From IMG/VR virus record IMGVR_UViG_2851976983_000001, positions 36,474 to 100,473 of that record: a DNA stretch of 64,000 nt; one strand, 5' to 3'. Every line of letters starts with the position of its first letter. Positions within the stretch are counted from its first letter, which is position 1. This document shows, piece after piece, positions 4,778 to 44,219 of the stretch. The translations under genes were made by a program, and so were the position numbers. Origin of the DNA: a virus (lineage: Duplodnaviria > Heunggongvirae > Uroviricota > Caudoviricetes). Below the pieces are notes generated by a model that saw nothing but the letters and a program-made list of their open reading frames with translations, had not been told where the DNA came from and searched no databases.

Positions 4778-4957
4778 GTGTTTTTACCTTTCTGGTTTTT
4801 TTGATTTTGTCATTTGGGAAGCCTACGAACTTCCCATGCATCGAAATCGCAACTTCTTTTGCTGATTGGTGACAATCGGGCTTGTCTGGACACACCAGAC
4901 AAGCCTTACCAGTTTCAGAAGCAGCGATAAGAGAGCCGAAACATCCTTTACGCACGA

Positions 4958-6193: not shown

Positions 6194-6288
6194 GCGTTTT
6201 TCCTTTGTTTTCTAATGAGCGTTCAACTTCTTATATAAATATATCATTATCTATCGTAAGTGGTTACTTATCGTTAAGGCTGTTTTGT

Positions 6289-8397
6289 TCACTTTAAAAT
6301 GATACGAGATAGTTCAGTAACTACAGATGAACCAAGACTATCAACGCTCGTTACCAGGGCATGTTTTGAGTAAAATCTCTCCGGTGCGTCAGTCATGATG
6401 CCAATTGCCATCAAATCAATGTCAGTCTGCGTTTCAATTTGCTTCGCAACCGAACGCAAATGAGCGTCAAAACCTCTCCCAACAGCCCACGGCGCGCCAT
6501 CACTCAGAACAAGCATGATCTTCCTGTCCTCCATGCGACCGGAAAATAACGATGCAAGGCTGGCTATGCTTTCACCATCCACGTTATTAAGAAGTGGGAA
6601 TGTGTAGCCTACGCACCCCATACGTGAGCGAACTTCGCGAGAATTTACCTTTTCATTCCAATTTTTGATGATAGGTAGCATTAAAGATTCAAAGCGAGAG
6701 AACTCATACTTGACAGCCTTAAGTTCTCCTGCCGCCATATGACTACCAAATGTAGTGAAGCCGGTGATAATGTTGGGAACATTTATTCGATCAAGGGCAT
6801 CGGCGATGGTATATGCACTTGCAAGAGCCAATTGTATCGTTATACCACTCATTGAACCTGATAAATCAATCACTTGTTGAACACAGGCGTTAACGGCTTT
6901 AGATTCTTCTTTTTTACGAAACACGCGATCATCATTCATTGCTAATCTGTAGATACTAGAACCATGAATGCGCCCCCGACGCTGGCCCGGTATAAACTGA
7001 ACTCTGTTTCTGCTTGCTATTGCTCGCTCCAGGTCTTTTGCCAGCGTCGACGAAACACCTGACGAAAGATGCTTTTCAATATATTTGTCGAAGAGCTGGT
7101 TGCCTTCAGGAACGATGCGATAGCGGCTGATTGGATATCCTCCTAAATCAATATCGGAGAATGTTTTAATAAGCCGTTTGATATGGGCTTCTGCCTGATC
7201 AATCGAGCCGATGAAGTCGTATGAGCGATTGTATGGCCTGTATTCGCTTTTCGAGCTTTCTGTTAACTCGCTTTTAATCGTTTCGGATAGAGCATCTTCT
7301 GTCATGCCTCCGACTTCATCTTCTATGCTATCCAGCTCCTCTAAAGCCTCTTCCAGACTCATTTTTGACGGAGTTGGGATATCTGAAGAGCCGTCTTCTG
7401 TCGTTTTTCTTTTTTCGTGGTCAGCGGTTAATGATTCTGACGCCGCGTTATCAGAAGCATCAGAATCTGATACCTCTTTATCATTTTCTGTATCATCGAA
7501 TATTGTTTCTGATGATTCAGAATTATCTGAATCATCACTGTCATTATTATCATGTTTGTACTTACTGTGTGACTCTGGTTTGATAGATTTGTGATTATCT
7601 AGCGATGAGGGTGTCTCATGATCTTCGTCGTCTTCATTGTTTTCTCCAGAGGCATCCGTCTGGTCAGCGTCTGAAGGATCGGAAGTTTTTCCCGGAGCTG
7701 ACTCCTTACCTTTGCTTTCACTTTCAGTGTCTTTGAGGATCTTAGCTATGGTCGCAGCCACCTTTACACAATCCTCGGTGCAAGACATGTTACGCACGGC
7801 CACATCGATACCATGTTCTTTTAATAATGAAATTGGTTTCTCAATGACAGGCCAGTATTCATCCATGAAATCTACGAACGGTGCTTGGCCATCCCAGGCT
7901 CTTACAACCGGACAGAGAAAGAAGTTTAGAAAAAGCGCGCGCTGATCTTTGCCACAATAAGCAATAGCCTCTGAAGCCTTTGGTTTAAAGACTTTTTCGA
8001 TTATAAGGCGTTGAGTTGCCATCAGATTACGTCTTGTTCCGTTAAAGACCTGCCCCATTTTTCGCTCGATGAACACGTCTTCTAAGGCATTCCATAGCGA
8101 CCAGGAAGGAACGCGTCCTTTTTCTCTCATTTTGTTGGACACACGAATATCGGTAAACAAAATGTGAGCAACCTCATGATCGAGAAATCCGCGCACAGCA
8201 TTCATCAATGCCGGTGTTGCGTTATCCGGGATTGATGGGATGTTTACGAGAATTGGCTCTCCATCATCGTTATAGCGTACATAAGCGTCGTCTCCTCGTT
8301 CTGCAACAGGGATGTTTTTACCTGAAAGGAGAGCGACTACTCGTTTTACACTGTCACGGAAGTCCTGAACCTCTTTGATGGAACGTTTTTTAGACAT
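6289..8397 (-). CDS. CobT-like von Willebrand factor A domain protein with acidic low-complexity linker
   Basis: C-terminal vWA MIDAS motif VIDLSGSMSG (DxSxS); central D/E/S-rich region; paired with the upstream AAA+ ATPase. Confidence 0.6.
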   Translation of the reverse strand: MSKKRSIKEVQDFRDSVKRVVALLSGKNIPVAERGDDAYVRYNDDGEPILVNIPSIPDNATPALMNAVRGFLDHEVAHILFTDIRVSNKMREKGRVPSWSLWNALEDVFIERKMGQVFNGTRRNLMATQRLIIEKVFKPKASEAIAYCGKDQRALFLNFFLCPVVRAWDGQAPFVDFMDEYWPVIEKPISLLKEHGIDVAVRNMSCTEDCVKVAATIAKILKDTESESKGKESAPGKTSDPSDADQTDASGENNEDDEDHETPSSLDNHKSIKPESHSKYKHDNNDSDDSDNSESSETIFDDTENDKEVSDSDASDNAASESLTADHEKRKTTEDGSSDIPTPSKMSLEEALEELDSIEDEVGGMTEDALSETIKSELTESSKSEYRPYNRSYDFIGSIDQAEAHIKRLIKTFSDIDLGGYPISRYRIVPEGNQLFDKYIEKHLSSGVSSTLAKDLERAIASRNRVQFIPGQRRGRIHGSSIYRLAMNDDRVFRKKEESKAVNACVQQVIDLSGSMSGITIQLALASAYTIADALDRINVPNIITGFTTFGSHMAAGELKAVKYEFSRFESLMLPIIKNWNEKVNSREVRSRMGCVGYTFPLLNNVDGESIASLASLFSGRMEDRKIMLVLSDGAPWAVGRGFDAHLRSVAKQIETQTDIDLMAIGIMTDAPERFYSKHALVTSVDSLGSSVVTELSRIILK

Positions 8398-8708: not shown

Positions 8709-8884
8709 TCAATCAATCCATTCTAACTTATACTATGGTAAGGAATACTACTAAAATTTGTATCAATACTGAATACATTCATATCATATGCAAGTTAATT
8801 TTCTTACCTATTTTGGGCTAATTTTTCTCCGTGCAATGGCCTTTAACCGGTCTTTTAAGTGCCTATCGAAAATAATGATAATAG

Positions 8885-8912
8885 CTTTACAACCCTAACC
8901 TTTGATGTAATA
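8885..8912 (+). promoter_or_regulatory. sigma70-like promoter candidate for the HTH gene
   Basis: TTTACA (8885..8890), 16-nt spacer, TAATAT (8907..8912), ~50 nt upstream of the ATG at 8960. Confidence 0.35.
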
Positions 8913-8959
8913 TCGGTAAGCACTTACCAGAGAGAATTGAACGCGCAAAGGTTGTAACC

Positions 8960-9346
8960 ATGTCTGATAACAAGATTGAATTTATAGAAAGTCGCTACGC
9001 TGCTTTTATCGCAGGGTTGATTGAATCCTCACCTATGAGCCAGGCCCAGATAGCCAAAACAATTGGGTATAAAAACGCCAACAACCTTTCTTTAATTAAA
9101 AGTGGCAAAATTCCTTTGCCTATCGATAAGGTTCGTCCGCTGGCGCTGGCGCTGGGTATTGAGCCTAGTCGTCTTATGATGATGGTGCTGGAAGAACGCC
9201 AACCTGAACTCGCAGCATTTTTGTACAAAGAAGGCACCGCTCCTCTTAACGAGGACGAAAAACAGGTTCTTGCTGCATATAACGAGCGATTCGGTAAAGA
9301 GAAAGGCGCATCACAAAAGGTTGTTGAGGCCATAAAGTCTCTATGA
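8960..9346 (+). CDS. helix-turn-helix DNA-binding protein (XRE/Cro-CI-like regulator)
   Basis: SQAQIAKTIGYKNANNLSLIKSGK HTH-like segment; convergent with and overlapping the integrase 3' end. Confidence 0.5.
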   Translation: MSDNKIEFIESRYAAFIAGLIESSPMSQAQIAKTIGYKNANNLSLIKSGKIPLPIDKVRPLALALGIEPSRLMMMVLEERQPELAAFLYKEGTAPLNEDEKQVLAAYNERFGKEKGASQKVVEAIKSL

Positions 9347-10444
9347 AAAATTTACACGAATAAGCTCTGTTGATAGACGATCTCCCTTGAATTTGTGGTC
9401 AATTTCGTCTAAATCCGGTTGATCTACGATTGATGCGATGTACGTCGAGAAACTTTCTAAGGCGTCTCGCATCTCGTCCATATAATCGTGCCGGTCGTAG
9501 ACCCGATCTATCCCCTCAAGACTGTGGTTCATGATTTTGCGTGATACCTCCTGGCTTATGCCTAATGCTGGGAAGTAACTACGCGCAGTACGGCGCAAAT
9601 CTCGGGGTGTAAATGGCTCAAGCTCCATCAGTTCTGGTCGTTCCAGAATACGACGTAATGCCTGGGCTATTGCCACTTTAGACATAGGAAGGTCTTTCCC
9701 GATTTTTTTATTCGAAGGCACGAGCCACTGGCTGTCTTTACCGTATTCGAACAACTCTTCAATGCATGTGCGCATTAATGTGCTTAAAGGCAGCGAATGC
9801 TCACGTGCTGACTTGTTTCTCTTGCCTTGATTCCAAACTCCACGCTTAAGATTGAACTCACTTTTTTTAGCCCGCAGTACTTCGTCAGGTCGTCTTGCTG
9901 ATACAAGACACAGTCTGGCCGCCCATTTTGTACCAGCGCACACATTGAAGTAGTCCCATATATTCCAGAACACCCATACCTCTGCGTCGGTCAGCTTCCG
10001 CTCGCGAGGTGTGGGCTTTGCGCCACCGGCAACTTTGTTTAGTGACATATCGTTTAGCGGTGACACGTCTATCATCCCCTGGAAGGCGCACCAGCTAAGG
10101 AACTGCTTCATCAGAGAGAAAACGCGGCGGCCCATAACAATTTTGCCATCCAATATTAGAGGGTTGACCAGTTGGTTCACCATGAACCTATTAATGTCAC
10201 TTACTTTTACATCAGCAATGTGCGGCAAAACATGTATCAAAATACAATGAACAGCGATCTCTGGCCGACGTCTGGTTATCAGCAGAGATAAGCGAGTGAA
10301 TAACATGAATGCGTCCGAGAATCTCATATCATTGCTAACCTGCGAGATCATAACGGCCTGCATTTGAGATGCTCTTTCGAGATACTCAATCGCCTCTTTT
10401 GAGGTGTTCTCCGCAGCGCGTGCTCTGTCAAAGCTATTTTTCAT
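9341..10444 (-). CDS. int: tyrosine recombinase / phage integrase
   Basis: C-terminal catalytic signature FTPRDLRRTARSY...IMNHSLEG...VYDRHDY (R...HxxR...Y). Confidence 0.85.
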   Translation of the reverse strand: MKNSFDRARAAENTSKEAIEYLERASQMQAVMISQVSNDMRFSDAFMLFTRLSLLITRRRPEIAVHCILIHVLPHIADVKVSDINRFMVNQLVNPLILDGKIVMGRRVFSLMKQFLSWCAFQGMIDVSPLNDMSLNKVAGGAKPTPRERKLTDAEVWVFWNIWDYFNVCAGTKWAARLCLVSARRPDEVLRAKKSEFNLKRGVWNQGKRNKSAREHSLPLSTLMRTCIEELFEYGKDSQWLVPSNKKIGKDLPMSKVAIAQALRRILERPELMELEPFTPRDLRRTARSYFPALGISQEVSRKIMNHSLEGIDRVYDRHDYMDEMRDALESFSTYIASIVDQPDLDEIDHKFKGDRLSTELIRVNFS

Positions 10445-15320: not shown

Positions 15321-15395
15321 TGGCGATGGTGGGTGGACTCGAACCACCGACCAGTTGATTAACAGTCAACCGCTCTACCACTGAGCTACACCATC
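15321..15395 (-). tRNA. tRNA-Asn (anticodon GUU)
   Basis: Minus-strand sequence GATGGTG-TA-GCTC-AGTGGTA-GAGC-G-GTTGA-CTGTTAA-TCAAC-TGGTC-GGTGG-TTCGAGT-CCACC-CACCATC-G-CCA folds as a cloverleaf with encoded CCA; 75 nt. Confidence 0.85.
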
Positions 15396-15834
15396 ATATT
15401 TCGCGGCGGTACTTGTTGATGGACAACCAGGCAACCAGGAACTTTCCCGCAACTTGCACTTTACGTTAGTGCCAGACGAGGCTTGTGGCGCGCTCACATA
15501 GAGCAAAGATCTGGAATCCTTCTCGGTGGTTGACGGCCGCCAGATTCTTCGATCTTATTGGATGTATGGAATCATCCATGTTGTGAAACCAGGGGCTACA
15601 TAGGCAACAATGATTTCACCAGAGGGTTAAAGAATCCTGCTTTCACAACGTTGAGGCCGCTGAACCGATTTATGTTCGACCCAACATATTGATCAGTCAC
15701 TACAGCTCTGTGGAATCACCTGTATGATTAAAAGAAAAACAGTGACCTCAACGTTGTGCGCTGGCTAACCAAGCCAGCCGGGTTACGTCGCCGCTTTTAA
15801 CCCAAGATTAAACGACATAAGTAATGGAAATGAC

Positions 15835-16970: not shown

Positions 16971-18292
16971 CAGTCTTTATCTCCAATACGGTCTTCGGTA
17001 TCTCGCAGACATTTCGGCCACTTCAGACGTGGGTGGCGTAAGCTACCGTCCGGCGTTTTCTCATGGCAGTGAACCTCGACGATGCGTCCACGATACTTCT
17101 CCTGATTGTTCCAGATCTCATCCAGGTACTTATGCTTGATACCGCTGGCACGAACGATGACGCCGTTCTCCAGACGAATCACTATCTTGCCCAGCGTATG
17201 CGCAAAGCCAGAGTCCGGGTCGCCTGGCTCGAAGTCGATGATTTCACCGTCTTCGGAATCCTCGTCTTTCAACTTCCACCAGCTGCGGGTACGCTTGAAC
17301 TCGTAAACAGAATCCGGATCTTTGCCCATCTCCCCCTCTTCGTTCTCGTCCAGGCGCTTCATGAAGCGTTCGATAAAGTCTCCATGGCTATGGATGATGT
17401 AGAACGGATGCAGGTGGATATCTTGCGCGTAATCTTCCCCGCAAGTGTTGCGGAACAACGCCACCAGCATAGCCAGGCGCTCTTTCAGCTTCATGCCGGT
17501 CTTCAGGTACTCTTTGCTTTTTGCCTGAGCACGCCACTCCGGTAAGAAGAAATCGAAGATGTGGTAAACGGCACCAATGGCTTTCACGTTCTTCTTGCGA
17601 AGCGCCGATACGGACTGGTTGAACGTACCTGCAGTACCCTCACCATCGAAGAAGATGTGCTTGAACCCGGAGAGTCTGCCTCGCTCCAGCATGGCCGGTT
17701 TAAGGTGATCGAGTGACGTAATCGGATTTCCGGTACGCGTCAGGAAGTTCACCTCTTCCTCGTCAACGATGACTTCGCAGATAACCCGGAGACCATCGAG
17801 TTTGAGGCTGCCGATCATTGGCCACTTGGCCTTTGGATTTGGTTTAAATGGGTATTTGTCGCCTTTCTCCTTGTACGGAGACGCCAGCTGTACCTCAAAC
17901 TTCGGAATTGGGTTTTCGAACACCTTGTTGCACAGGCTGATGCCGACGCCGGCTTTCGGATCTTTCAGCAGGAAGCGACGAAACACGTCCTGCCCGTCAG
18001 CGCACATTGAGGCAACGAGTGATTCGACAGCAGTAATGGCCGCGTTCCCGGTCAGTTCGCGCGCCGCCAGCTTCTCCAGCAGCTCGACTACCTTCTGGTC
18101 GATGGGTACGGAAGTATCGAGTGGCTCGACCACTTTGTACTTCTTCACACCGAATCGAATGAATGGGTTGAGCATTAGCGAGACCATGCTCTGCTCAAAT
18201 TCATCAAGGTTGGCCAGCGCCTCTTTTTTGGCGTTGGTTCCCATCGTTTTTATGGCATCCAGCTTGTGCTTTAGGGCGATCAGTTTTTCCAT
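16970..18292 (-). CDS. ATP-dependent DNA ligase
   Basis: Adenylation motif I SLKLDGLR (KxDGxR); 440 aa. Confidence 0.85.
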   Translation of the reverse strand: MEKLIALKHKLDAIKTMGTNAKKEALANLDEFEQSMVSLMLNPFIRFGVKKYKVVEPLDTSVPIDQKVVELLEKLAARELTGNAAITAVESLVASMCADGQDVFRRFLLKDPKAGVGISLCNKVFENPIPKFEVQLASPYKEKGDKYPFKPNPKAKWPMIGSLKLDGLRVICEVIVDEEEVNFLTRTGNPITSLDHLKPAMLERGRLSGFKHIFFDGEGTAGTFNQSVSALRKKNVKAIGAVYHIFDFFLPEWRAQAKSKEYLKTGMKLKERLAMLVALFRNTCGEDYAQDIHLHPFYIIHSHGDFIERFMKRLDENEEGEMGKDPDSVYEFKRTRSWWKLKDEDSEDGEIIDFEPGDPDSGFAHTLGKIVIRLENGVIVRASGIKHKYLDEIWNNQEKYRGRIVEVHCHEKTPDGSLRHPRLKWPKCLRDTEDRIGDKD

Positions 18293-18326
18293 TAGTGTTT
18301 AACCTCCATCGGTCGCTCGGGAGTTT

Positions 18327-22167: not shown

Positions 22168-23508
22168 TTAGGTAACGTCTAAGATTCGCTCAATGAAGCG
22201 CATTTGTTCGAGTTTTTGTTTAACGCGAATGCTGATCCCTCCCTGCTGGTTACGTGAACCAGCAAAGTAGAGACGAGCCTCTCCTTTCGCTTCTTCTTCT
22301 TCGGTTTTGTTGATCGTTATTACCAGGTCAGCAATACGTACTTTTTCGATGTTGTCGGCGGCGTGCATCATTGTGGCAACTTCTGACGCGCCACCTTCAC
22401 GGTTTGTCTGCGATGCCGTGATTCCAGCAACGTTATGTTTGTCATAAAGAGCACGTAAATCGGTGTAGATACTACGAATGTTGGCGCGATCATCACGAAG
22501 GTCATAACTGGCACGCATCAAATCTGCGTAGTCGACAACAACCATGTCAGGCACCATGCCGTTGGCTTTCATGCTGTTAAGCATACGGTCCAGATCTGCC
22601 GGTGACATACTTCCTGACGGACGCTCAACCACCCACAAACTACCAATCCCCTTCGTGGCTCCCAACTCTGCCAACTTACGATGAACCTCATCGCGCCGTT
22701 CCACCAGCTTGGACATTTCCGTCTCCGACAATCTTGCATCAAAACGGTCGGATAAAATGGTAGTGTGAACCTCCAGCGAGAGATACAGAACATTGTAGCC
22801 AGCAAGCGTTGCGTTTATGGAAAACTCACCCATTGCGGTCGATTTACCGGATTTAGCGAACCCCATGAAGAGCACCATTTCACGCTTCGCCCAGCCTTTT
22901 TGGTACAGCAACCTATCGAGCAGAGGGAGTCCAGTTGTAATGCTGTTTGGCACATACTCCTCTGAAGCCTCATATTCACGCGCTTTCAATCGCTCACTTG
23001 CGGAGGTGTAGTAGTCATAGATTCCGGTCGCTTCGTTCGATCCAATCTGCTGAACCTTGGCCATGATTGCCATCGCCCCCTGAAAGTCGCCTTTCTCTTT
23101 CAGTTCAGCAGCCTTAATCAGAGCATCATCAAACGCTACGCTTTTTGCGAAGGTTGATACCTGGTCAACCATGTACGAGGTATCGGACAATTTTTCTGCA
23201 AGGATGCGCTTAAACGCAGCAACAACATCGGCGAATAGTTCCTCACGGATAGTCTTATCGCGTTTCGCACGCTTAAGCATATCCAGAATTGCAGATGAAG
23301 AGGGCGCGCTCTTGTACATACGGTAATAGCCCGAAACCATATTAACCAATATGGCATTGGCCGCATTGGCAAATTGGCTAGGCACAACCAGATCTCCCGC
23401 ACGAGTAAGAAACTCGTGATCACGACAAAAATATGCCGTCAGTCTGTTCTGGAAATCTTCATCAAACTCTTCGGACAGCCCGCGTCCTGTATGGCAAAGT
23501 TCGGTCAT
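22168..23508 (-). CDS. DnaB-type replicative helicase
   Basis: Walker A GFAKSGKST and RecA-like C-terminal core; 446 aa. Confidence 0.85.
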   Translation of the reverse strand: MTELCHTGRGLSEEFDEDFQNRLTAYFCRDHEFLTRAGDLVVPSQFANAANAILVNMVSGYYRMYKSAPSSSAILDMLKRAKRDKTIREELFADVVAAFKRILAEKLSDTSYMVDQVSTFAKSVAFDDALIKAAELKEKGDFQGAMAIMAKVQQIGSNEATGIYDYYTSASERLKAREYEASEEYVPNSITTGLPLLDRLLYQKGWAKREMVLFMGFAKSGKSTAMGEFSINATLAGYNVLYLSLEVHTTILSDRFDARLSETEMSKLVERRDEVHRKLAELGATKGIGSLWVVERPSGSMSPADLDRMLNSMKANGMVPDMVVVDYADLMRASYDLRDDRANIRSIYTDLRALYDKHNVAGITASQTNREGGASEVATMMHAADNIEKVRIADLVITINKTEEEEAKGEARLYFAGSRNQQGGISIRVKQKLEQMRFIERILDVT

Positions 23509-24463: not shown

Positions 24464-24574
24464 CATAACTTGTCGTCTTAGACGCCCAGAAGCTCTACAC
24501 TTTGAGCCTGTTAAATTGATTAAAAACTTATGTGTAAAATAGAACGCATTAGTCAGTAGCTAAGAGATGCAATA

Positions 24575-25342
24575 ATGGACGATTTATCGGTATACGCGAG
24601 ATCATTGGATAAGGCTAAATACTATGTTTACTGTCTCTATGATACAGAAGACAAGATGAAAAGACCGTTTTACATAGGAAAAGGCAAATCGACTCGTTGT
24701 CTCGATCACATCAAGTATCCCGATGACTCTCCCAAATCCATGCGGATCAAAGAACTTTTGGCTAATAAAAAATTAGGCATAGATATACTTCGTCATGGTA
24801 TGGATGAAACCACAGCCAAACTTGTTGAGGCGACATGCATCGACCTTATGGGGGTCGGAGAGCTTACGAATAAGGTTCGAGGAAGTGGTTCCATGATGGG
24901 CAGAATATCACTGGACGCCTACCATCACTTAGTGCTGCAAGAGGAAACTGAAATTGCTCCTGAGCACGCCGGTCTTGCCTTCCTGCTAAACAGCACCTAC
25001 AAGTCAGGAATGTCCGCTCTGGCATTATATGAAGCTACGCGTGGCGTATGGGCAAAGGTTCCAAGAGACGAGAATCTCAAATATGCCTACGCTACATATG
25101 GTGGGCTGATAATGGAAGTTTATCAGATTGAATGCTGGGTCAAAGCCGGTTCTCAGCAGTACTTTACAAGGGATATAGCTCTTGGCCCCGACACAAAACG
25201 TTATGAATTTGTTGGCAGAATAGCCGATGAGCATATTAGAAAACTGTATGTAGGCAAATTAATCAAGAAGCCACCAAGCTACGGTAGCCCTTTTGTGAAG
25301 GTTGGGGTGGTTAGGACTGAACATAGTGTTAGCGCGGCATAA
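24575..25342 (+). CDS. GIY-YIG nuclease-domain protein (homing-endonuclease-like)
   Basis: N-terminal YYVYCLYD...PFYIGKGKSTRCLDH resembles the GIY-(x10-13)-YIG...R core; plus strand, own terminator. Confidence 0.45.
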   Translation: MDDLSVYARSLDKAKYYVYCLYDTEDKMKRPFYIGKGKSTRCLDHIKYPDDSPKSMRIKELLANKKLGIDILRHGMDETTAKLVEATCIDLMGVGELTNKVRGSGSMMGRISLDAYHHLVLQEETEIAPEHAGLAFLLNSTYKSGMSALALYEATRGVWAKVPRDENLKYAYATYGGLIMEVYQIECWVKAGSQQYFTRDIALGPDTKRYEFVGRIADEHIRKLYVGKLIKKPPSYGSPFVKVGVVRTEHSVSAA

Positions 25343-25359
25343 AGCTGACACAGTAGTTA

Positions 25360-25396
25360 TGCATTGGCGCAACGTACGCGCCAATGCATGATTTTT
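25360..25396 (+). terminator. rho-independent terminator of the GIY-YIG gene
   Basis: TGCATTGGCGC-AACGTAC-GCGCCAATGCA followed by TGATTTTT. Confidence 0.6.
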
Positions 25397-25754
25397 AACC
25401 TTTTTTCATCAACTCTCGTTTGATTTCATCGGTACGCATCGTGACATCGGCAGCTGTGATCGCCTCGTTAAGTTTCACGATGTCCTCGATTTCCTGCGGT
25501 GACTTCTCTGCCAGATGGAAAATGGCTGCGCGAATCACGTCTGAACGGGTGAACTTCTCGAAGCGAGGGATGAACTTCATCATCTCCAGCAGTTCGAAGT
25601 ATTCGTCCTCCAGTGACATTGTGCGGCTTTTAATTTTCTCTTTGCCACGAGTCGGGCGTCCCTGTGGTCTGACTGGTTGGCGCAAAGGAGTTGTGTTCTT
25701 AGCCGGTGCATCAGGCTCTTTGCGCTTTGCTAGGTCACCCATTTTCATGGACAT
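25395..25754 (-). CDS. small partition/centromere-binding protein candidate (ParG/ParB-like)
   Basis: 119 aa, basic N-terminus; translationally coupled to the ParA gene (ATGA overlap). Confidence 0.4.
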   Translation of the reverse strand: MSMKMGDLAKRKEPDAPAKNTTPLRQPVRPQGRPTRGKEKIKSRTMSLEDEYFELLEMMKFIPRFEKFTRSDVIRAAIFHLAEKSPQEIEDIVKLNEAITAADVTMRTDEIKRELMKKG

Positions 25755-29452: not shown

Positions 29453-29689
29453 CTACCATTCAGCATTGCAACGGACTGATGAGAAAGCACCTACTCCTAC
29501 CCATCGCCAGTTATAGATGCTACCCGCTTTGTATAAGGTATAGTCGTTCACTTTTTTAACAGCATATATGGGTATGACTGTCTCCTGTCCACCAATGATA
29601 GCCTCACCATAACATATAGGTGTCGGCAATTTCTGGCAGCCAGTAAGAGAGAGAACAACAGCTATTGTTAGAAATAATCTTTTCATCAT
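29453..29689 (-). CDS. small lipoprotein
   Basis: MMKRLFLTIAVVLSLTGC signal peptide with LTGC lipobox; 78 aa. Confidence 0.6.
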   Translation of the reverse strand: MMKRLFLTIAVVLSLTGCQKLPTPICYGEAIIGGQETVIPIYAVKKVNDYTLYKAGSIYNWRWVGVGAFSSVRCNAEW

Positions 29690-29696
29690 TTACTCA

Positions 29697-30305
29697 TCAG
29701 TTATACAGATTTCTATTTATTACCGGTACTCTGCCATTTACGCTAAAACTATGGCCGCCATTAAGTTGGTTTACGAATATAGAGCTAACAGTATTTCCAT
29801 ATGCCGCATATCCATAAACCATTGTCATGGCCCCGCCCGGTACTGGAACCGCGAACACATTTGCATATGTTGGGATTATCGCTGGCGGGTAATCAAAAAC
29901 ATGCCCTCCAGAACTGTTCCACTCCGTATTATTAAGAAAGGTAAATGAAAGTGGGATATTTGCCGTATTATAGATCTCCTCTCCTCGCGCATTGAAAAAA
30001 CTCATGCCCCAAGTTTCTTTTTTGGCTATACCTTTCGAAAATACGTATATCGTGGCACTAGAGTCGCTACCCTGACCTCCGAAACTGTAAATCACCTGGT
30101 TGTTACGCACTATTCTGTTGGCTATTAATGAAACAGCTTTCGAATAGGAAACAAAAATCATCGGTGAACGATCTGGAGATATTTGGGTGTTAAACTCTGT
30201 CCCGCCAGACAAAGAAACAACCTGCTTTCTCTGAAAAACGATAGGAGACAAAGAAGGAGACATCCAGACCTTCCCGTCAGATCGATATATCTTGCTTCCG
30301 TACAT
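29697..30305 (-). CDS. hypothetical protein downstream of the tail fibre
   Basis: 202-aa ORF. Confidence 0.5.
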   Translation of the reverse strand: MYGSKIYRSDGKVWMSPSLSPIVFQRKQVVSLSGGTEFNTQISPDRSPMIFVSYSKAVSLIANRIVRNNQVIYSFGGQGSDSSATIYVFSKGIAKKETWGMSFFNARGEEIYNTANIPLSFTFLNNTEWNSSGGHVFDYPPAIIPTYANVFAVPVPGGAMTMVYGYAAYGNTVSSIFVNQLNGGHSFSVNGRVPVINRNLYN

Positions 30306-30559
30306 TATTTTTGAAAAACCAATATGTTTAAATTGCCACTAGCTCCAGACCATGAAATGGTATTTCCAGAAACCGTAAGACTTGTGTATTTCCCATTGGT
30401 TACGTCCATTATGTAATAGTCGATTCCCAATCCCGCCTCAACCTCATATGTTCTACTTCCAGAACCAGAGGGAGTAAAATAATCGAGGTAATAAACAGGG
30501 GCCAACGCATCGACCATCTCCTGTCTTGATGGCGACCATACCTGTGCACCATAGCTCAT
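30305..30559 (-). CDS. hypothetical protein downstream of the tail fibre
   Basis: 84-aa ORF; start overlaps the next gene's stop. Confidence 0.45.
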   Translation of the reverse strand: MSYGAQVWSPSRQEMVDALAPVYYLDYFTPSGSGSRTYEVEAGLGIDYYIMDVTNGKYTSLTVSGNTISWSGASGNLNILVFQK

Positions 30560-32023
30560 AAATATATCCTTATACTTTTAAGCAGGGGCTGGTTTAGTTC
30601 CAGCCCCGATTGAAGTTGTTTATTCTTTAGGTGAATTTAACTTCGTTTCAAGCTCCTCAACCCTTTTGGTCAATTGCTGAATATGATGAATGAGTGGTAC
30701 AACCAAACGCTCATACATCACCCCTTCAGCGACCATACCATTTGAGGAAATATCTTCTGGAGAATCATTATTTGTTGGTTCACGCCAATGGACATATTGC
30801 GGGGCAATCTCACCTACCTCTTCAGCAATAAGGCCGTAATACCCCCAATCCTTTCGGTCACCTCGACAAATTGAACGATACCAAACAGGTCTTAATGACA
30901 AAAGTTCATCAGCATATCGATCTTGTAATGTTTCAATATCCTTTTTATAGCGCCTTGAAGATGTTGAACGCCAAACTGTATTGATACCTGGGTTTGGATC
31001 AATGTACATATTGGCACCGCTAGTAGTTGTGCCAATATCCCATATAGCAAACCCTCCACTACCGCCTGATTTGACAACCAGTGTTTCAGCAATAATATCC
31101 AGGTTGCCACTATAGCCTGTCAGTGATGATCTGCTTGCATAGGAACTTAGAAGGTTTGTTACCTCTGTTTTCGTGTAAGCATTAAGGTTAGCCGCAGTCA
31201 AAGTAATATCGGCAGAGCCATCAAACGCCACACCAGCAATTTTCCTTGCTGTCTGCAATTTTGTGGCTGTTGCGGCATTACCAGTAGTATTCTGATTACC
31301 GGTTGTATTCACACCAGGGATTGAATCCTTAGCAGTATATACCTGCGCCCACGCTGACCATGCCGCATCTGTGGTATCTCTTCGTGAGCGAATGAAAACT
31401 GGCGCATGTGCACCGCTCGTACCACTCCAGCCAATAAGCAACTCGCCCTCACCAGCAGCACTCGCACCTTTCATGTGCAATACGTTGCCATACGTGGTCG
31501 GATAGCTATTGTTGTACGCCTCGTACATTTGAATGCCAGCAGTGCCTTGAGTAGAGCCGCTTAATGCCGTAACTCGGCCACGAGATACCAGTGTATTAAT
31601 GTTGATATCGCCTGAGCCATCAAACTTAACACCATTGATGTTTCTCGCTGTTTGCAACTTCGTAGCTGTTGAAGCATTACCGTTCAAACTACCATTTACG
31701 CCACCAGTCACATTTAGTCCATTACCAATTGATACCGCACCGCTGGTATTATTAATTGTAATAGGTCGCAAACCGTTCCATGAACCTAATGTGTCTCCTG
31801 ATGCTGTTAGCATGAAATATGTGTTCGATCCATCATTACGGATAAAGAACCCAAAGCTACCGTAAGCAATGCGGAAACCATTTGCATATTTTGAAATGAT
31901 CTCACCAGAAGACGTTAATCCGCCAGTTAACGCTCCTCCAGATAGTGGTAAAGCTCCGACATCAGCCGCAGTAGGCTTGTTTTTAGTGTTATACGCTCTG
32001 CGCCATCCTGGTTGGATTTGCCC

Positions 32024-32929
32024 CTATATTTCCAGACATCTGTTATCACTTAACCCATTACAAGCCCGCTGCCGCAGATATTCCCGTGGCGAGCGATAAC
32101 CCAGCGCACTATGCGGATGCCATTCGTTATAATGCTCGAACGCCTCTGCAAGGTTCTTTGCTGCCGTTAACCCGTCTGGTTTGGGCATGATACTGATGTA
32201 GTCACGCTTTATCGTTTTCACGAAGCTCTCTGCTATTCCGTTACTCTCCGGACTCCGCACCGCCGTGTTCTTCGGTTCAAGTCCCAACATCCGGGCGAAC
32301 TGGCGTGTTTCATTAGCCCGGTAGCATGAACCATTATCCGTCAGCCACTCCACTGGAGACGACGGAAGATCGTTGCCGAAGCGGCGTTCCACCGCTCCCA
32401 GCATGACGTCCTGTACTGTTTCACTGTTGAAGCCGCCGGTAGTCACCGCCCAGTGCAGTGCCTCACGATCACAGCAGTCCAGCGCGAACGTGACACGCAG
32501 TCTCTCTCCGTTATCACAGCAGAACTCGAACCCGTCAGAGCACCATCGCTGATTGCTTTCTTTCACGGCCACTCTGCCTGTATGTGCCCGTTTCGATGGC
32601 GGTACAGCAGGTTTTCGCTCAAGCAACAGCGCATTCTGGCGCATGATCCGGTAAACACGTTTGGCATTGATCGCAGGCATACCATCAAGTTCTGCCTGTC
32701 TGCGAAGCAGCGCCCATACCCGACGATAACCATACGTGGGCAGCTCTCCGATAACATGGTGTATACGGAGAAGCACATCCGTATCATCAGTGTGACGACT
32801 GCGGCGGCCATCCATCCAGTCATCGGTTCGTCTGAGAATGACGTGCAACTGCGCACGCGACACCCGGAGACAACGGCTGACTAAGCTTACTCCCCATCCC
32901 CGGGCAATAAGGGCGCGTGCGCTATCCAC
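32024..32929 (-). CDS. insD: IS2 transposase OrfB
   Basis: 301 aa, recognised as IS2 InsD. Confidence 0.9.
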
Positions 32930-33252
32930 TTTTTTGCCCGTCCATATTCAACGGCTTCTTTGAGGAGTTCATTTTCCATCGTTTTCTTGCCGAGCAGGCG
33001 CTGGAGTTCTTTAATCTGCTTCATGGCGGCAGCAAGTTCAGAGGCAGGAACAACCTGTTCTCCGGCGGCGACAGCAGTAAGACTTCCTTCCTGGTATTGC
33101 TTACGCCAGAGAAATAACTGGCTGGCTGCTACACCATGTTGCCGGGCAACGAGGGAGACCGTCATCCCCGGTTCAAAGCTCTGCTGAACAATTGCGATCT
33201 TTTCCTGTGTGGTACGCCGTCTGCGTTTCTCCGGCCCTAAGACATCAATCAT
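32887..33252 (-). CDS. insC: IS2 OrfA (HTH)
   Basis: [41 protein letters not shown]...; ORF-track start trimmed to the IS2 orfA ATG. Confidence 0.9.
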
Positions 33253-36134
33253 CTGTTCTCCAATGACTAGTCTAAAAACTAGTATTAAGACTATCACTTA
33301 TTTAAGTGATACTGGTTGTCTGGAGATTCAGGGGGCCAGTCTACTGGTGAATAGCTCGTCCCGTTAAATACATAGATAAACTCCGCATTAGTGAGAGCAC
33401 CAGAGACACTCGTCGTTGTGGCCGTTGTTATACGGATCGTATAATTGTTTGAGCTACTACCGTTATTAAATACCTCTATAACAGCTCCTGCTAATGGAAT
33501 AACGCCACAACCAGTTTCACTATTTGGTATGGTTGCACTATTGGCATAGGCCCACGCACATCGAGCAATCCATGACTTTGTGTTAAATGCTCCATTATTT
33601 TGCAATAACGTCACTAACTGTGCTGTTGTTATTGCTCCGCCATTACTTCCTGTAGTTAACCAACCAGTAGGAGATGCCGGGCAACCTATATTTGCTGGCG
33701 ACAAGGAAATATTTGCCGAGCCGTCAAACGACACCCCATTGATAGTACGCGCAGTCTGCAACTTCGTAGCAGTAGCCGCGTTGCCCGTTGTATTCTGATT
33801 ACCAGTCGTATTAACACCTGGCAAATTAATATTCGCAGTACCATCAAAGCTCACGCCGCCGATAGTTCTTGCCGTCTGAAGTTTTGTAGCAGTTGCAGCA
33901 TTACCAGTGGTGTTCTGATTACCCGTAGTATTTACACCTGGAAGGTTGATATTTGCAGAACCGTCGAAACCAACTCCACCGATAGATCTTGCCGTCTGCA
34001 ATTTCGTTGCTGTACTTGCATTACCATTTAATGTTCCGGTGATCCCACCAGTAACAGACAACGGACCTGAAACTGTTCCTCCGGTTGTTGGCAGTGCTCC
34101 AATATCTAACGGCGTCGGTTTCTGATGTGTGCTATACATCGTATAAACAACACCATCGGTAACGCTGGAAGGCTTACTAGCTGAATATGTTGGCGATGTA
34201 TAAATAGAAACTGTCGCATTTGCAGTACAATCCCAATGGATATTTACACGAGTCGCATAATTGCCAATCTCAACGTAAATATCATATGTATCGCCGGATG
34301 TGTTGATCCAGGCGAAATTCGTTAATCCGACAGCTGTACGCTTCCACAAAGCACCTGTAATCCCTTTGGGGTTTCCATTGCCTGCTCGTAGAACCAGTTC
34401 TGAAATGCCTGCCTGATGTGGGGAGCCGACGTTGTAACCAGCGCCACCAATCAATGCGATGTAAACGATGGAACTCGCTTGTGGCATTGTAACAGTAGCC
34501 AGTTTGAACCACCCGGCCCCGCCAGAGAAAGACATCGTTATTGAATTTAAAGTACCAATATCTTTCGGCGTTAATGTGATATCCGCAGTCAGTGCTTTCC
34601 CGTTAATTTTTCGGTTAGATGGCACCCTGCTGTTCGCATTGTCATTGACTACTTTAACTGCTTTTGGCGTTGCGGCCAGCGATTCACTGGTGCTGTCGAC
34701 AGCACTGCTAAGTTTCACAACACCTTTAGTTGTAAGGCTTGCGTCTTCCATCGCAACTGCACCGGCAATCTCTTCAGCACGATCAGCAGCAGCTTCCGCA
34801 CGGGTCGCAGCGGATTCAGCAGCAGTTTTGCTCTGAGATGCTGCCGTCGCACTGCCTGCCGCCTCTGTTGCTTTCGTGGATGCCGTCGTGGCGCTGCCCT
34901 TCGCTGCTGACGCCTGTCTGGTCGCCTCATCTTTTGAAGCAGACGCAGATGATGCCGATGACGCTGCCGAACTGGCGGACGATGCGGCTGCCGTTTTTGA
35001 GGATTCTGCACGGGTTTCCGACGCTTTCGCGTTCGTTTCGGATGTCTTCGCTGCGGAAGCAGACCTCGCTGCTGCGCTGGCCTGTTCAGTGGCTTCGCCA
35101 GCCTTCGTTGTGGCTGTTGAAGCAGACGATGCGGCACTTTCTGCCGATTTTCCGGCGGCGGTGGCACTGGCTGAGGCCTGCCCGGCACTTGTTGACGCGG
35201 CACTGGCAGACGACGCAGCCGCTGTTTTTGAGCCTGCCGCAGCCGAGGCGCTCTGTCCCGCTGCCGTTTCAGAAGACCTGGCGTTCGTCTCGGACGTTTT
35301 TGCCGCCTTCGCGGAATTTCCTGCCGCCGTTGCCGAGGAAGCGGCATTACTGGCGCTCGAGGCTGCGCTCGTTTCTGATGATTTCGCTGCCTCTTTTGAG
35401 GCCGCCGCATCCCGGGCTGAGGTGGCAGCTTCTGACGCCTTCGTGGTCGCGGTGGATGCAGAAGTGGCTGCAGATTTTTGTGACGCTGCAGCATTCGTTT
35501 CAGACGTTTTCGCGGCACCGGCACTGGTGGCCGCCGCGCTTTTTGAGGACTCTGCAGCGGATGCACTTTGAGACGCTTGAGAGGCTTTTTCTCCAGCGGT
35601 ATTGGCGCTTTCTGCTGCTGCGGCAGCACTGGCCGCCGCCTCACGAGCTTTGTCGCCAGCAGCATCAATCGCGTCAGTGTTATTTTTATACCACTCAACG
35701 TTTTCGTTGTGCTCGTTGACGATCTGCATTAGCGGCTTAACGGCCACTTCTGTACCGTCTTCACGCTCGATTGTCACCTCATCCAGAGCAGTCAACCAAC
35801 TGCGCATGGACTTGGAATCAGCCGACATACGCGACATTAGTGCTGTAAAGCGCGCGCTAAACTGTGTTAAGTCGCCTTCATAGGTCGTAATGATTCGGCA
35901 CGGAACTTCAGACTGAGTTTCGCCGGTATAAGGTTCTGAGAGAACAATGTTCGTATCACTGGTTACGCGCTTGATCTCATACAGCTTATTGTCGGGGCCA
36001 ATGACGATCATCCCCGGCAACACACCATTAGCTGTTACGTTCCAGGCTGTCCCTGCCCCAACCAGAGTATTGCTGCCCTGTGTAAATGTGATAGTACCTT
36101 CCCTGTACCACATGTTGAATATGCTCCTTGATTT

Positions 36135-36155: not shown

Positions 36156-39100
36156 ATTAAGTATGTACCTACTTATTTTTACCTATATAAATATTTTTTT
36201 CTACATTACAGAAGGCCAATTCTTACTCGTAGGACGTTGTTATCGTCATAAACGTCAATCCGCTGACCATTTATGACCAGTCGCCCATTACCCCCGCTAT
36301 TACCGTTGATCTCAAGCGTTCCATTTTTGCCGAACCGCCATCCAGATCTACCGCTAACAAAATTGGTAGATTGCAGATCGCCTACTTTTGCATTGGTGAT
36401 TGTGCCATCCTTGATATACGCACCATTCATATAGGCGATACTGTTTTCGATAACAAATGGCGTGGTGATCTTCCCGTTAACAGAGTTGACCAAACCAAAC
36501 CTGTCAGCCTGCACCAAAAACTGAGAAAGGCCAGTGGTGTCGATACCAAGCGCAATACCAGCAACATACTTCTGCCCTCCGCTCGTTGAAGTCTCCATTT
36601 TCAACGTCCACGCGGTTGACACTTTTTTGTTGGTATCAGCAATAGCTGTTGCCTGCTGTTGAATTGTCGCGGTATTTCCATCCACCTCTGCTTTCAGAGT
36701 GTCGATTCGCCCACTTAGAGCATTATCTGCCTGCGTTCTCGCTGTCGTTTCAGTTGTGACCGCCGCAGAAATGTTGGCTGCTGTTTGAGACTCTAAGTTT
36801 GTGATTTGAGTCGCCAATGCCGCATCTTGCTCTGTACGCGTTTTCGTTTCGGTTGCTACAGCCGCTTTAATATCCTCTTTGTATTGAGAGGTCAGCTTGG
36901 TGATCTGAGACGACAACGCCGAGTCAGCATCAGTTCGAGCCTGCGTTTCAACTGCAACGGCCGCACTAATATCTTTCGCTGTCTGTGCTTTTAAACTTGA
37001 AACCTCTTTTGTTAAAGCGGTATCACCATCAGCACGAGCCGTTGTTTCTCTGGCAAGAGATGCCTCGAGATCATTAGCTTTTGCTGTAAGAGACGAAATC
37101 TGAGTGGACAATGCACTATCGGCATCAGTCCTTGCCTTTGTCTCTACAGCAACCGCTGCGGCAATATCAGTTCCGGTTTGTGCTCGCAGGCTGTTAATTT
37201 CTCGTGAGAGCGCCTGGTCAGCACTTGCTCTGGTCTCCTGCTCCTGAGTGATGGCAGCGGATATATCACCGTCAACCTTTGACTGAAGCTGGTTTATTTG
37301 TTTGGCTAACGCAGAGTCCCCGCTTGCTCGGGCCTCCTGCTCACTACGTATTGCAGCAGAAATATCATCATCAACCTTTGCCTGAAGTTGGGTGATCTGG
37401 CTTGCCAGAGCCGAATCTTCCGTTGCTCGGGCTTCTTGCTCTTCCTTAATAGCTGCGACGATATCGTTGCTTACTTTCGACTCAAGCTGAGTGATCTGTG
37501 TCGTCAGAGCTTCATCGGCAGATGTGCGAGCCTCCTGCTCTGTACTAATCGCCGCGCTGATATCTCCTTCAAACTTAGATTGCAGCTGAGTGACACGCTT
37601 TGCCAACGCTTCATCGCCATCGGCACGAGCGGTGGACTCTTCCAGAATACTGGCCTTAATGTCTTCGCCAATTTCTACGCGAATTTCCTCAACCTTCGTG
37701 GCCATTGCAGACATATCATCAGCAAAGGTTTTCTGTGTTGTTGCGATCTTCGCGTTATTGACCATCTGCTTGTGCTGGTCTTCATCTTGACGAAGAGCCA
37801 GGTCAATATTTGTTTTGGCTAACGCCTCAATGTTCGTAGTCAGTTCTGCACTGGCACGATCGACCTCTGCAACCGTCTTTTTCATTTCTTCAACGGCAGC
37901 GGAGCTTTCCTCTACCGTTGACTGCAACACTTCCAGTTGTTTAGCGTTTGCAGCATCGCCTTCAACACGAGCCTCGCTTTCCTTAGCAATAAGAGCCGCC
38001 GCTTCATCTCTTGCAGCCTTTATTGCCTCGACTGTATTAGCGAGAGCTTTATCGTGTTCAGATACGGTGTTTTCGATTTCAACAATTGCAGCATCAGTAG
38101 CATCAATTTTTTCAAACGCTTCATTGACCTTGTCGATCGTTGCCGAAACCTCACCTTTAAGCTCGGTTTGTGCGTTCTCCAAAGCATCGCTACGCTCGTT
38201 GAATTTTATTTCAAAACCCGCGAGGTTATCGCTGAACTGCTTATCTAATTCAGCTATATCTTCCTTAACGTCGTTTACCGACCCCTCCAAAGATTCGACG
38301 CTCTGGTTGATATGCTCATTTAACTCGTCAACTGCTTCTTGAGAGGCTTTGCTGTTGATGTCCTCAAGCAGAGCCTGACCAAGCTCGGAAGATGTAATTT
38401 TGCCAGCCAGGAACGACAGTACATCGCGAGTTGTCGCCTCTGTACCCAAGTTTGAGTTCGGAGGGCTTAACATACCTCGCTTGTTCGATGCTCGAACCCA
38501 GTAATACCACGTTTCGCTATCCCCAAGACCAGCATGTGTAAAGGTGGTGCTTGCAGACTCTGCGATCAGTTTCGCCGTATCCAGATTGTTGGTCTGGGAT
38601 GCGTAAACATTAATGTGATCAAGGTCTACCGAATCTGGATTAACCCAATTCAGTATCACATTACGATAGTCTCCAACGGCCGTTAATGACGTTGGGGCAT
38701 CCGGCGGTGTCATTGTGCCCAACACCTGATAAACGGTACTGATAATCTCTGTTTTTTTACCGTTGAATGAAACCGCATACAGTTGGAAGTCGTAGTGTCC
38801 ATTCTCCGCGACATTAACGATTTCGTATTGCTCTTCGGTTACACGCGCCGATTGCCAGTTCGATACATTGTTTTCATCAGAACGTCGCCAACTGATCCAA
38901 TACTCTGGAGATTTTCCTTCCCATGTTGCAGTCAGTTTTACTGACAGGTTGCCCGGGCTTGAGAGATAAGTCCCTTCAGTGATTTGCAGATTAGATGGCT
39001 TGGAGTAAGTTGGGTCCAATACCGTCGTATTCTGCGGGATCAGCGTTGCGCCATTGTCGATTGCCTCATATTTAGACGGATTGTTCTCAACAGCGGTGAT

Positions 39101-39229
39101 GTCAAAGCTACCCGGCGTTTCCCCCTGCGCGATGTTAACGATGCGAACGCGCATAGGTTCGAGATCTGGTTCTGTAATTGTCCAGACACCGTTCAAAACA
39201 GGCGTTTCCGCTGACGACAGGGCTTTTGA

Positions 39230-41174
<1,945 letters not shown>

Positions 41175-41199
41175 ACTTCCTGAGAAAGAGGTAAACAGG

Positions 41200-41522
41200 A
41201 TGACTAAAAATACTCGTTTTTCCCCCGAAGTCCGTCAACGGGCAGTCCGTATGGTTCTGGAAAGTCAGGATGAATATGACTCACAGTGGGCGGCAATTTG
41301 TTCCATTGCCCCAAAGATTGGCTGTACGCCGGAGACTCTGCGTGTCTGGGTTCGCCAGCATGAGCGGGATACCGGGGGCGGTGATGGTGGGCTCACCAGC
41401 GCTGAACGTCAGCGTCTGAAAGAGCTGGAACGTGAAAATCGTGAACTGCGCCGCAGTAACGATATCCTTCGCCAGGCTTCCGCTTATTTTGCGAAGGCGG
41501 AGTTCGACCGCCTCTGGAAGAA

Positions 41523-41526
<4 letters not shown>
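41200..41526 (+). CDS. IS3-family transposase OrfA
   Basis: [57 protein letters not shown] (HTH + leucine zipper). Confidence 0.9.
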
Positions 41527-42551
<1,025 letters not shown>

Positions 42552-44219
42552 CGATTTTGCCTTCCTGATTCAATATCCGAATAAAGCTGCCACTTTTAGC
42601 TAACGACACAGGCGCATCGAGAGTGATGCTGTTTTTGGTAAACTCCACAATTCGACCGGAGTTACGTTTACCTGCACGATATTTGTTCTGAATCAGAACG
42701 GTTTCACCAGGCATCAGAAATGAGGCGTCTAAGCCGGCAGTAAATGTAATTACATCCGACTCCATTCTGGCGGTATACAAAAGCCACAAACCAACTCGGT
42801 GAGCCTGGCCTCGGCTTGTACATCCAAATGCTACGACTTCTGTTTTACGCTCACCATAACGGCGCATTGCGTCCTGATCTTCAACGTATTCGATGTTTTG
42901 CTTATAACCGTCCTCCTTGTTGTTGTAGGTTACGAGCGCAACGGATGGGCGATCTTTACGCGCAGAACCTTTATAGGTAAACAGTCCATCTTTGACGTTG
43001 GAGTTGGTAAACATCATTACCGGATCTGATGGGCTATCCTGCATGATGTTAACCATGCCACCAGCCCAAAACACCATGCCGCGGAATGCACCGGCAATAT
43101 CCTGAATTAATCGGTATGCGTCTTGTCGACTGGTGATCTGCGTATTGATTGCAAAGCGTTTCTCTTTACCCCCAAAGCCATCATCGACCTCTTCGTCACA
43201 ATATCGACCAATCTGGTAGAGCTGGCCGAGGTCAATCATGGATTCCGACACAAATTGCCCAAGACCATACCGAGTATTGGTAAGCAAATCGTAGAGAATC
43301 CACGCAGGGTTTGAAGAAGACAACAGCTTAAAAGTACCGTCCCATACGCCGACATAAGTATTGGTGTATTCGTTGTAGTTTGACGGTACTCGGATTTTGA
43401 TACCGCGCACCAAATACGAACGGGAAGGGATTGTGCTACCAAACTGCTCTGAATTGACCTTCAAGCCAACAAGAGCAGAGTTAGGGTAGTTCATTGGCGT
43501 GTCGACAATCTCACCGATGGAATCAACCCATGTGTCGTTGTAGAGGTACTGGCTACTATTATCATCTGTAAGACGAATCACCCTAACCTTGTATGCACGA
43601 CCAGGCTTAGGCAGTTTCAGCTCATAGCTACGGTAATACACGCCGGTTTTCTTTGCCGTTAGCGTGATATCAACGCTTTTCTCACCTTCTGCCACTACAT
43701 CAGAAAATGTTGCGTCTGCGTTGGCGATCTGGAATTTGTACTTCACCGTAGTGCCATTTGTATCGCCAGAGCTTTTATCAACGCTACGTAAAGAGGGGAA
43801 TTTCATGATGACACGAACGCGATCAGCTTCATCGTTATCGATTGAAACCGTAACGTCGTGTGTTTTTTTAAGCTGAATATTTACGGACTTAGGCGTTTCG
43901 ACAAAATCAAAACCAGCCATTGGCGTCTGATCTTGTGAGCCGTCACGAAAATCCCATGTAATACCGCTGAAGTTGGAAGAGCCATCTTCATTCAAGATCG
44001 GTAAATCGTCGATGAAGATCGACTTTGCGCCATTTACCAGGCCACCGATAACCCCCTCGCCAAGAAGGTCGAGGATGGCTGCCATAGCACGAGAATTGAC
44101 AGTATCATCAGCTTCAACCGGGGTACGGCTGGAGCTTTTACTTTTCTTGCCACCAGCACCGGCAATAAGAAGCGGTAATTTTTTCTTCTTGAACTGTTCC
44201 ATGTCCAAAAAATCCTTGA

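Follow-up and report, generated by a model that had tools for sequence, protein, structure and literature searches.

The side tail-fibre gene of plasmid p503829_100 is interrupted by a complete copy of the insertion sequence (IS) IS2. The insertion has almost certainly knocked out this gene in what is an SSU5-like phage-plasmid, with IS2 lodged in codon 924 of 1385. The plasmid (NZ_CP025870.1) is a 100,470-bp circle of enterotoxigenic Escherichia coli (ETEC) strain 503829, from human stool in India. The window analysed here is a stretch of 64,000 nucleotides (nt) that corresponds to positions 8190-72189 of NZ_CP025870.1; positions are given in window numbering. The plasmid carries RepB, ParB, terminase, portal and tape-measure genes and is collinear with 110-kb relatives, and its major capsid protein matches that of phage Cyrano at 100% identity and that of Salmonella phage SSU5 at 93.8%. 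Judged by these genes, p503829_100 is an SSU5-like phage-plasmid.

The IS2 element and its junctions

The interrupted gene and the element comprise the following features.

33344..36113, minus strand: 5′ part of the fibre gene; native codons 1-923 and base 1 of codon 924, including the right-hand CTGGT copy
30620..32012, minus strand: 3′ part of the fibre gene; remainder of codon 924 to codon 1385 and the stop, with a 397-residue (aa) open reading frame (ORF) as its distal portion
32013..33343, minus strand: complete IS2 (IS3 family), 1331 bp, by identity to annotated IS2
33302..33343, minus strand: left inverted repeat of IS2 (IRL), ~42 bp, starting TAGACTGGCCCC in IS orientation; from terminal alignment, with the length taken from PMC3299598
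32013..32053, minus strand: right inverted repeat of IS2 (IRR), ~41 bp, ending ...GGGGCAAATCCA in IS orientation; from terminal alignment, with the length taken from PMC3299598
32887..33252, minus strand: IS2 orfA (InsC), 121 aa, with an HTH_Tnp_1 domain
32929..32935, minus strand: A6G (AAAAAAG) programmed −1 frameshift window joining orfA and orfB; from the sequence, the RefSeq label 'programmed frameshift' and PMC3299598
32024..32929, minus strand: IS2 orfB (InsD), 301 aa, with HTH_21, rve (DDE integrase core) and rve_3 domains
33344..33348, unstranded: target-site duplication by IRL, CTGGT on the plus strand and ACCAG in gene orientation
32008..32012, unstranded: target-site duplication by IRR, CTGGT

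Read directly from the window, the element between the CTGGT copies occupies 32013..33343 on the minus strand and measures exactly 1331 bp. Many plasmid copies annotated 'IS3-like element IS2 family transposase' or 'insertion element IS2 transposase InsD' match it at 100% over this full length, and the SfX record has a feature labelled 'insertion sequence:IS2' that matches it at 99.6% identity. RefSeq labels the locus 'IS3-like element IS2 family transposase, programmed frameshift'. The coordinates that an earlier note on this DNA had given for a complete 1331-bp IS2 are thereby reproduced. IS2 has been described as having imperfect inverted repeats of 41 bp (IRR) and 42 bp (IRL), the genes orfA and orfB, and an A6G window (PMC3299598). 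The termini of the present copy read TGGATTTGCCCC... and ...GGGGGCCAGTCTA, and its ends TGGATTTGCCCC... and TAGACTGGCCCC... align as imperfect inverted repeats. Length, identity, inverted repeats, ORFs with their frameshift and a 5-bp duplication all agree: the insert is IS2. Given its intact ORFs and ends, this copy is presumably transposition-competent.

The junctions were read across 31950..33420. At the left boundary, ...GCGCCATC CTGGT is followed by TGGATTTGCCCCTATATTTCC..., and at the right boundary ...CAGGGGGCCAGTCTA is followed by CTGGT GAATAGC.... The direct repeat (32008-32012 and 33344-33348) does not extend to a sixth base, and on re-reading both copies proved the same and exactly 5 bp long, as the same note had held for its identical CTGGT flanks. 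IS2 would have arrived by the copy-out/paste-in route, through a minicircle intermediate.

The two fibre pieces appear in the ORF list as that note described them, with 939 aa at 33294..36113 and 397 aa at 30620..31813, both on the minus strand. The transposase genes are oriented the same way as the fibre gene, and the list places same-strand ORFs of 136 aa and 301 aa between the two pieces, orfA proper being 121 aa. An AAGGAG lies 8 nt upstream of the fibre ATG at 36113. From this start the 5′ frame continues for 16 codons into IS2 and stops at 33294, which gives the 939-aa product. RefSeq annotates the 5′ part as WP_024171767.1, 'phage tail protein', and divides the 3′ part into an incomplete pseudogene (31814..32017) and a 257-aa 'tail fiber domain-containing protein' (30620..31393). 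At 32013..32030, the InsD frame is also the frame of the downstream fibre fragment, with only the InsD TAG between them (...NRCLEI, stop, GQIQPGWRRAYNTK...); this shared frame of orfB and the fibre fragment is probably a coincidence.

Removal of the element and one repeat copy joins 30620..32012 to 33349..36113 in 4158 nt, a multiple of 3, which encode 1385 aa with the sole stop at the end. The exact in-frame rebuilding of a fibre of ~1385 aa, proposed from the first reading of the sequence, is thus borne out without an internal stop. Across the restored junction the protein reads ...FNGTSYSP followed by GWRRAYNTKNKPTAADVG..., or in short form ...TSYSP followed by GWRRAYNTKNKP.... No sequence feature speaks against the insertion.

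As an event, the insertion is of a familiar kind. IS2 knockouts in E. coli, including those of prophage genes, involve the same element and the same 5-bp duplication, and a search of a phage collection also places IS2 in Stx-phage and SfX genes. What sets the present case apart is the target alone, a side fibre of an SSU5-like phage-plasmid, and the mechanism is the same. The case is in this respect a routine IS2 knockout of a prophage gene, for which RefSeq already records the IS2 transposase, a fibre pseudogene fragment and a coding sequence on each side.

Intact relatives and the empty site

Related E. coli plasmids of ~110 kb carry an uninterrupted 4158-nt gene at the same place, directly downstream of J, the tail-tip gene. 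For one of them the annotation reads 'tail fiber domain-containing protein', with 1385 aa. The intact fibre that was to be sought in related phage-plasmids therefore exists, at 1385 aa, and a PHROG profile of length 1385 covers the restored protein from one end to the other. Aligned with NZ_CP107145.1 and NZ_CP027358.1, the restored gene needs no gaps and differs at 52 and 44 nt positions (10 and 8 aa), respectively. Intact SSU5-like fibres (WP_250200283.1 on pS2-S1K81-2; the pLF82 / phage Cyrano fibre) are the same 1385-codon gene downstream of J, align gaplessly at 98.8-99% nt identity and are followed by the same small downstream ORFs and cor gene, whereas the present copy is broken at codon 924.

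The nt differences are unevenly distributed, 33 of them falling in one patch of 125 nt that surrounds the insertion site (fibre nt 2750-2873; window ~33241..33364 and ~31905..32012). A scar or gene conversion induced by the IS was considered for this cluster and is ruled out by the presence of the same patch in uninterrupted alleles. When 300 bp of the restored site are compared with a second group of relatives, the patch is found there at 99.3% identity and with no interruption. NZ_CP053233.1 has an identical, insertion-free junction with a single ACCAG, and its two mismatches are each more than 60 nt away. Because the same patch occurs in uninterrupted alleles, it is older than the IS2 insertion and represents ordinary mosaicism of the fibre gene. 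In this patch the present copy follows the NZ_CP053233.1-type allele and not that of its nearest overall relatives. The second-group relatives that share the patch allele have shorter fibres (1194 aa), and the patch points to recombinational mosaicism inside the fibre gene.

A homologous fibre gene has been interrupted elsewhere. Plasmid p899037_3 (CP091407.1, UK; excerpt 4549..7092) carries an insertion of ~2.5 kb with an IS66-family tnpB at ~nt 3045. Since p899037_3 is a different SSU5-like plasmid and its insertion is independent, insertion sequences have struck the fibre gene on more than one occasion.

Spread and age of the insertion

Several NCBI accessions and at least 11 contigs contain the 939-aa product in exactly this form, with its 16 IS2-encoded residues. 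Five further loci, representing more than 20 samples with one metagenome scaffold among them, are 100% identical to the window over ~5.8 kb. All five, which include short-read assemblies, end 54-77 nt inside IS2. The lengths of these contigs, 6.05-6.15 kb, suggest that a second break lies just inside an IS100 element in J (described below).

These data bear on whether IS2 could have been misplaced by repeat collapse or a mis-join in the PacBio assembly. IS2 is multi-copy in the strain, with an identical copy on the second plasmid p503829_52, and a sister assembly arranges the surroundings of the same IS2 differently, both of which would suit an artefact. A perfect 5-bp duplication, however, is the signature of transposition and not of a mis-join. 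The same fibre-IS2 junction recurs at 100% identity in independent short-read assemblies and a metagenome scaffold (more than 20 samples), the identical 939-aa product stands under several independent NCBI accessions, and the carrier contigs, reading 54-77 nt into IS2, effectively span the junction. The probability of an assembly artefact is practically negligible. The insertion is a real, lineage-inherited allele.

The insertion is also young on an evolutionary scale: carriers show no substitutions, the 5-bp repeats match perfectly, and IS2 has the same sequence as the p503829_52 copy. The earlier note had called it a recent event; this holds in evolutionary terms but not in the sense of a one-off, as the allele is fixed in a lineage and found in more than 20 samples.

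Consequences for the fibre protein

Two domains of the restored protein are relevant to the effect of the break.

31754..33395, minus strand: Gp34_trimer-type domain, residues 907-1008 of the restored protein (Pfam PF21446, E = 5.7e-30); native segments 33344..33395 and 31754..32012
30791..30961, minus strand: Peptidase_S74 ('chaperone of endosialidase') domain, residues 1273-1329 (Pfam PF13884, 27.2 bits against a cut-off of 22)

The label of side tail fibre, already given to the gene on first reading, is supported by shaft homology and by position. Lambdoid phages have genes annotated 'side tail fiber protein' to which the shaft (nt 525-1478) shows 88-95% identity, the restored protein hits many tail-fibre families in PHROGs, and the gene directly follows J, its position in the tail module. 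The C-terminal chaperone-like domain (SRRYKKDIE...GYYGLIAEEV) that had been recognized by eye is confirmed by Pfam, with Peptidase_S74 above its gathering score. This PF13884-type C-terminus is shared with S74-chaperone fibres and spikes such as the K1F endosialidase and the T5 L-shaped fibre pb1. In contrast to these, the remainder of the protein combines an Ala/Ser-rich shaft of lambda-Stf type with gp34/Mu-S-like domains in a mosaic, and the intramolecular chaperone and its auto-cleavage are predictions from sequence. The C-terminus aligns weakly (E = 0.02) with the T5 L-shaped tail fibre (8hqz), pairing TSSRRYKKDIE with TSGIEYKKDV and YGLIAEEV with FGVIAEEA. For the catalytic Ser...Lys motif, this same weak alignment (E = 0.02) sets S-S-R-R-Y-K opposite S-G-I-E-Y-K of the T5 fibre. 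A strong link of the domain to a solved structure was rejected, the T5 fibre match being weak.

IS2 cuts the Gp34_trimer domain after residue 923 and parts the N-terminal fragment from the distal receptor-binding region and from the Peptidase_S74 domain. In fibres of the S74 type, the upstream part depends on the chaperone for its folding and trimerisation. Given this dependence and a cut that falls inside the gp34-type trimer domain, the truncated product of 923 + 16 residues is probably misfolded or non-functional. The distal piece, for its part, would have neither start signals of its own nor a virion-attachment end, and the side fibre is in all likelihood dead.

The 397-aa ORF begins with MLTASGDTLGSWNGLRP..., which aligns with internal residues 301-340 of the Mu tail fibre protein S (MLTNSGDNMGTYNGLRP), and matches to PDB chains (Mu protein S, T4 gp34) begin exactly at the Met of 'MLTASGD'. 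Since it aligns inside Mu S and T4 gp34, this Met is an internal residue and not a start. No Shine-Dalgarno sequence was found ahead of it, and an independent start for the distal ORF was rejected, with the Met inside a conserved domain and lacking such a sequence. A consensus scan yielded no promoter at the IS2/fibre junction, its total hits being at or below the level of shuffled sequence, and an outward IS2 promoter or a hybrid promoter for the distal part was rejected on this negative scan. The 397-aa piece therefore stands as an ORF, but not as an independent gene.

These features also bear on a functional split, in which a 939-aa shaft and a separately made 397-aa receptor-binding tip would act together, much as some phages build fibres in two parts. 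In favour of this, each ORF is long and uninterrupted, proteins are called on either side by gene callers and by RefSeq, and a PHROG family of 397 positions (phrog_37852) matches the distal ORF end to end. The distal Met, however, is internal to the trimer domain (MLT[A/N]SGD in Mu S and T4 gp34) and has neither a Shine-Dalgarno sequence nor a predicted promoter nearby. The break lies inside Gp34_trimer, 66 native codons between IS2 and the Met are lost, the distal piece lacks a virion-attachment region, and all close relatives have one continuous 1385-aa gene. A working two-part fibre thus has only a slim chance of being correct. The 939-aa and 397/257-aa 'proteins' in databases (phrog_37852; separate NCBI accessions) are fragments of one 1385-aa fibre.

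Several considerations weigh against reading the insertion as a full loss of fibre or phage function. The loss of fibre function is inferred from sequence, and the 923-aa fragment might still trimerise and be mounted on virions. Side fibres are dispensable for plaques in some siphoviruses, and laboratory lambda lacks a functional Stf. The fibre break by itself is insufficient proof of a dead phage.

Wider decay of the phage-plasmid

The gene next to the fibre is also disrupted.

36206..44202, minus strand: J / tail-tip (host-specificity) gene, broken; RefSeq pseudogene halves on both sides and alignment to intact J

Compared with intact J genes, it contains an insertion of ~3.27 kb at 39284..42550 with IS100-type ends and a 5-bp ACGAT duplication. 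An IS1203-like element of the IS3 family, ~1.31 kb at ~41147..42455, is nested in this IS100 near its right end, as mapped by comparison with the plasmid's second IS100 copy. The tail module thus holds three IS copies (IS2, IS100 and the nested IS1203-like element). The second IS100 lies beyond the window, at NZ_CP025870.1 ~93,728..95,678, flanked by a truncated DNA modification methylase and a truncated AAA ATPase. It stands in place of 16,767 bp of NZ_CP027358.1 that include nrdAB, thymidylate synthase, dfrA51, rnhA and an exonuclease; this 16.8-kb loss is an IS-adjacent deletion. The initial impression of a lack of further decay is accurate inside the fibre gene but not elsewhere, given a J split by IS100 with a nested IS and the 16.8-kb deletion.

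Because J is broken, the formation of infectious particles is very improbable, and p503829_100 very probably makes none. With the fibre and J both split and 16.8 kb of accessory genes deleted, the element would most likely be locked into plasmid life and passed vertically in one ETEC lineage.

The state of J is also relevant to a reversible switch, whereby precise excision of IS2 over the 5-bp repeats would control the fibre and host range. With the duplication perfect and the flanks intact, the gene would return to wild type on precise excision, and the IS66-family insertion in the same gene elsewhere hints at recurrent inactivation. Among carriers, however, no restored allele of the exact sequence was found, all recovered contigs having the insertion, and J is broken independently, so that repair of the fibre alone would not restore infectivity. 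From what is established for the IS3 family, IS2 leaves precisely across 5-bp repeats only rarely and by accident, not as a programmed event, which further argues against a switch. Such a switch is highly improbable, and the insertional knockout remains the preferred reading.

The conversion of phage-plasmids into plain plasmids through gene loss and transposase insertion has been shown for P1-like elements (Pfeifer & Rocha 2024, PMC10879196). Like defective P1-like phage-plasmids, p503829_100 has IS-disrupted virion genes (J and the fibre) and has lost a block of 16.8 kb, while its replication and partition genes are kept. It differs from the P1-like cases in being an SSU5-like element and in that the loss of phage function is read from sequence alone. 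The tally of decay is four IS copies, two broken tail genes and a 16.8-kb deletion, without point-mutation decay. Its value is modest, as a clean and datable case of decay from phage-plasmid to plain plasmid within a pathogen lineage.

IS2-mediated fusion with the Longus plasmid

The same strain carries p503829_52 (52,054 bp), an F-type plasmid with the genes of the Longus (lng; CS21) type IV pilus. Its identical IS2 copy, with a 5-bp TTGCG duplication, lies in a PAS-domain gene between traY and traM (excerpt 4001..5331). In p500465_152 (CP025897.1), from a sister ETEC strain of the same locality, two IS2 copies are found with their flanks swapped (excerpts 8771..10101 and 3351..4681). One junction reads fibre-5′-ACCAG/IS2/TTGCG-traM side, and the other traY side-TTGCG/IS2/ACCAG-fibre-3′. 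The length of p500465_152, 152,530 bp, is 6 bp apart from the 152,524 bp given by 100,470 + 52,054. In these assembled junctions the swapped flanks demonstrate the signature of IS2×IS2 homologous recombination, with p500465_152 as the resulting 152-kb cointegrate. Because each IS2 in the separate plasmids has matched duplications, the separate state is the ancestral one. The separate and fused states have thus both been sampled, in sister strains. A caveat is that the cointegrate is known from one PacBio assembly without annotation, with the 6-bp length mismatch. The main text of an ETEC genome study that includes strain 503829 (PMC6446980) makes no mention of the phage-plasmid, IS2 or the cointegrate.

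A tentative and rather doubtful extension is that the IS2 in the dead fibre acts as a recombination handle that reversibly fuses a crippled, non-mobilizable phage-plasmid to the Longus (CS21) plasmid. If this were true, the 152-kb hybrid would have both maintenance sets and an F-type transfer origin region, and the phage-plasmid remnant could persist and spread within a virulence plasmid. IS2-driven fusion with a colonisation-factor (virulence) plasmid is the only extension of the case that we consider mildly interesting.

Neighbouring genes

On the 3′ side of the fibre gene, 29453..30559 holds ORFs of 84 aa and 188-202 aa that match PHROGs 'outer membrane protein' and 'membrane associated protein / moron'. 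These two small ORFs are followed by cor, a phage-exclusion lipoprotein gene. Both are absent from the one examined relative with a different fibre C-terminus (in a PLSDB gene table, which can be incomplete), and they may travel with the fibre cassette.

A variable slot at ~24466..25397 is occupied here by a LEM-3-like GIY-YIG protein on the opposite strand, and in relatives by a P-loop NTPase or by a DUF2971 protein and a hypothetical protein. The position is a possible hotspot of accessory or defence genes.

The window further contains dnaE (Pol III alpha; 1262..4780), a tRNA-Asn gene (15324..15398), an ATP-dependent DNA ligase (16973..18295) and a DnaB-like helicase (22171..23508), and RefSeq annotates metG and apbC beyond it. 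This set of replication and translation genes is unusually large for a temperate element, and is likewise so in the relatives examined.

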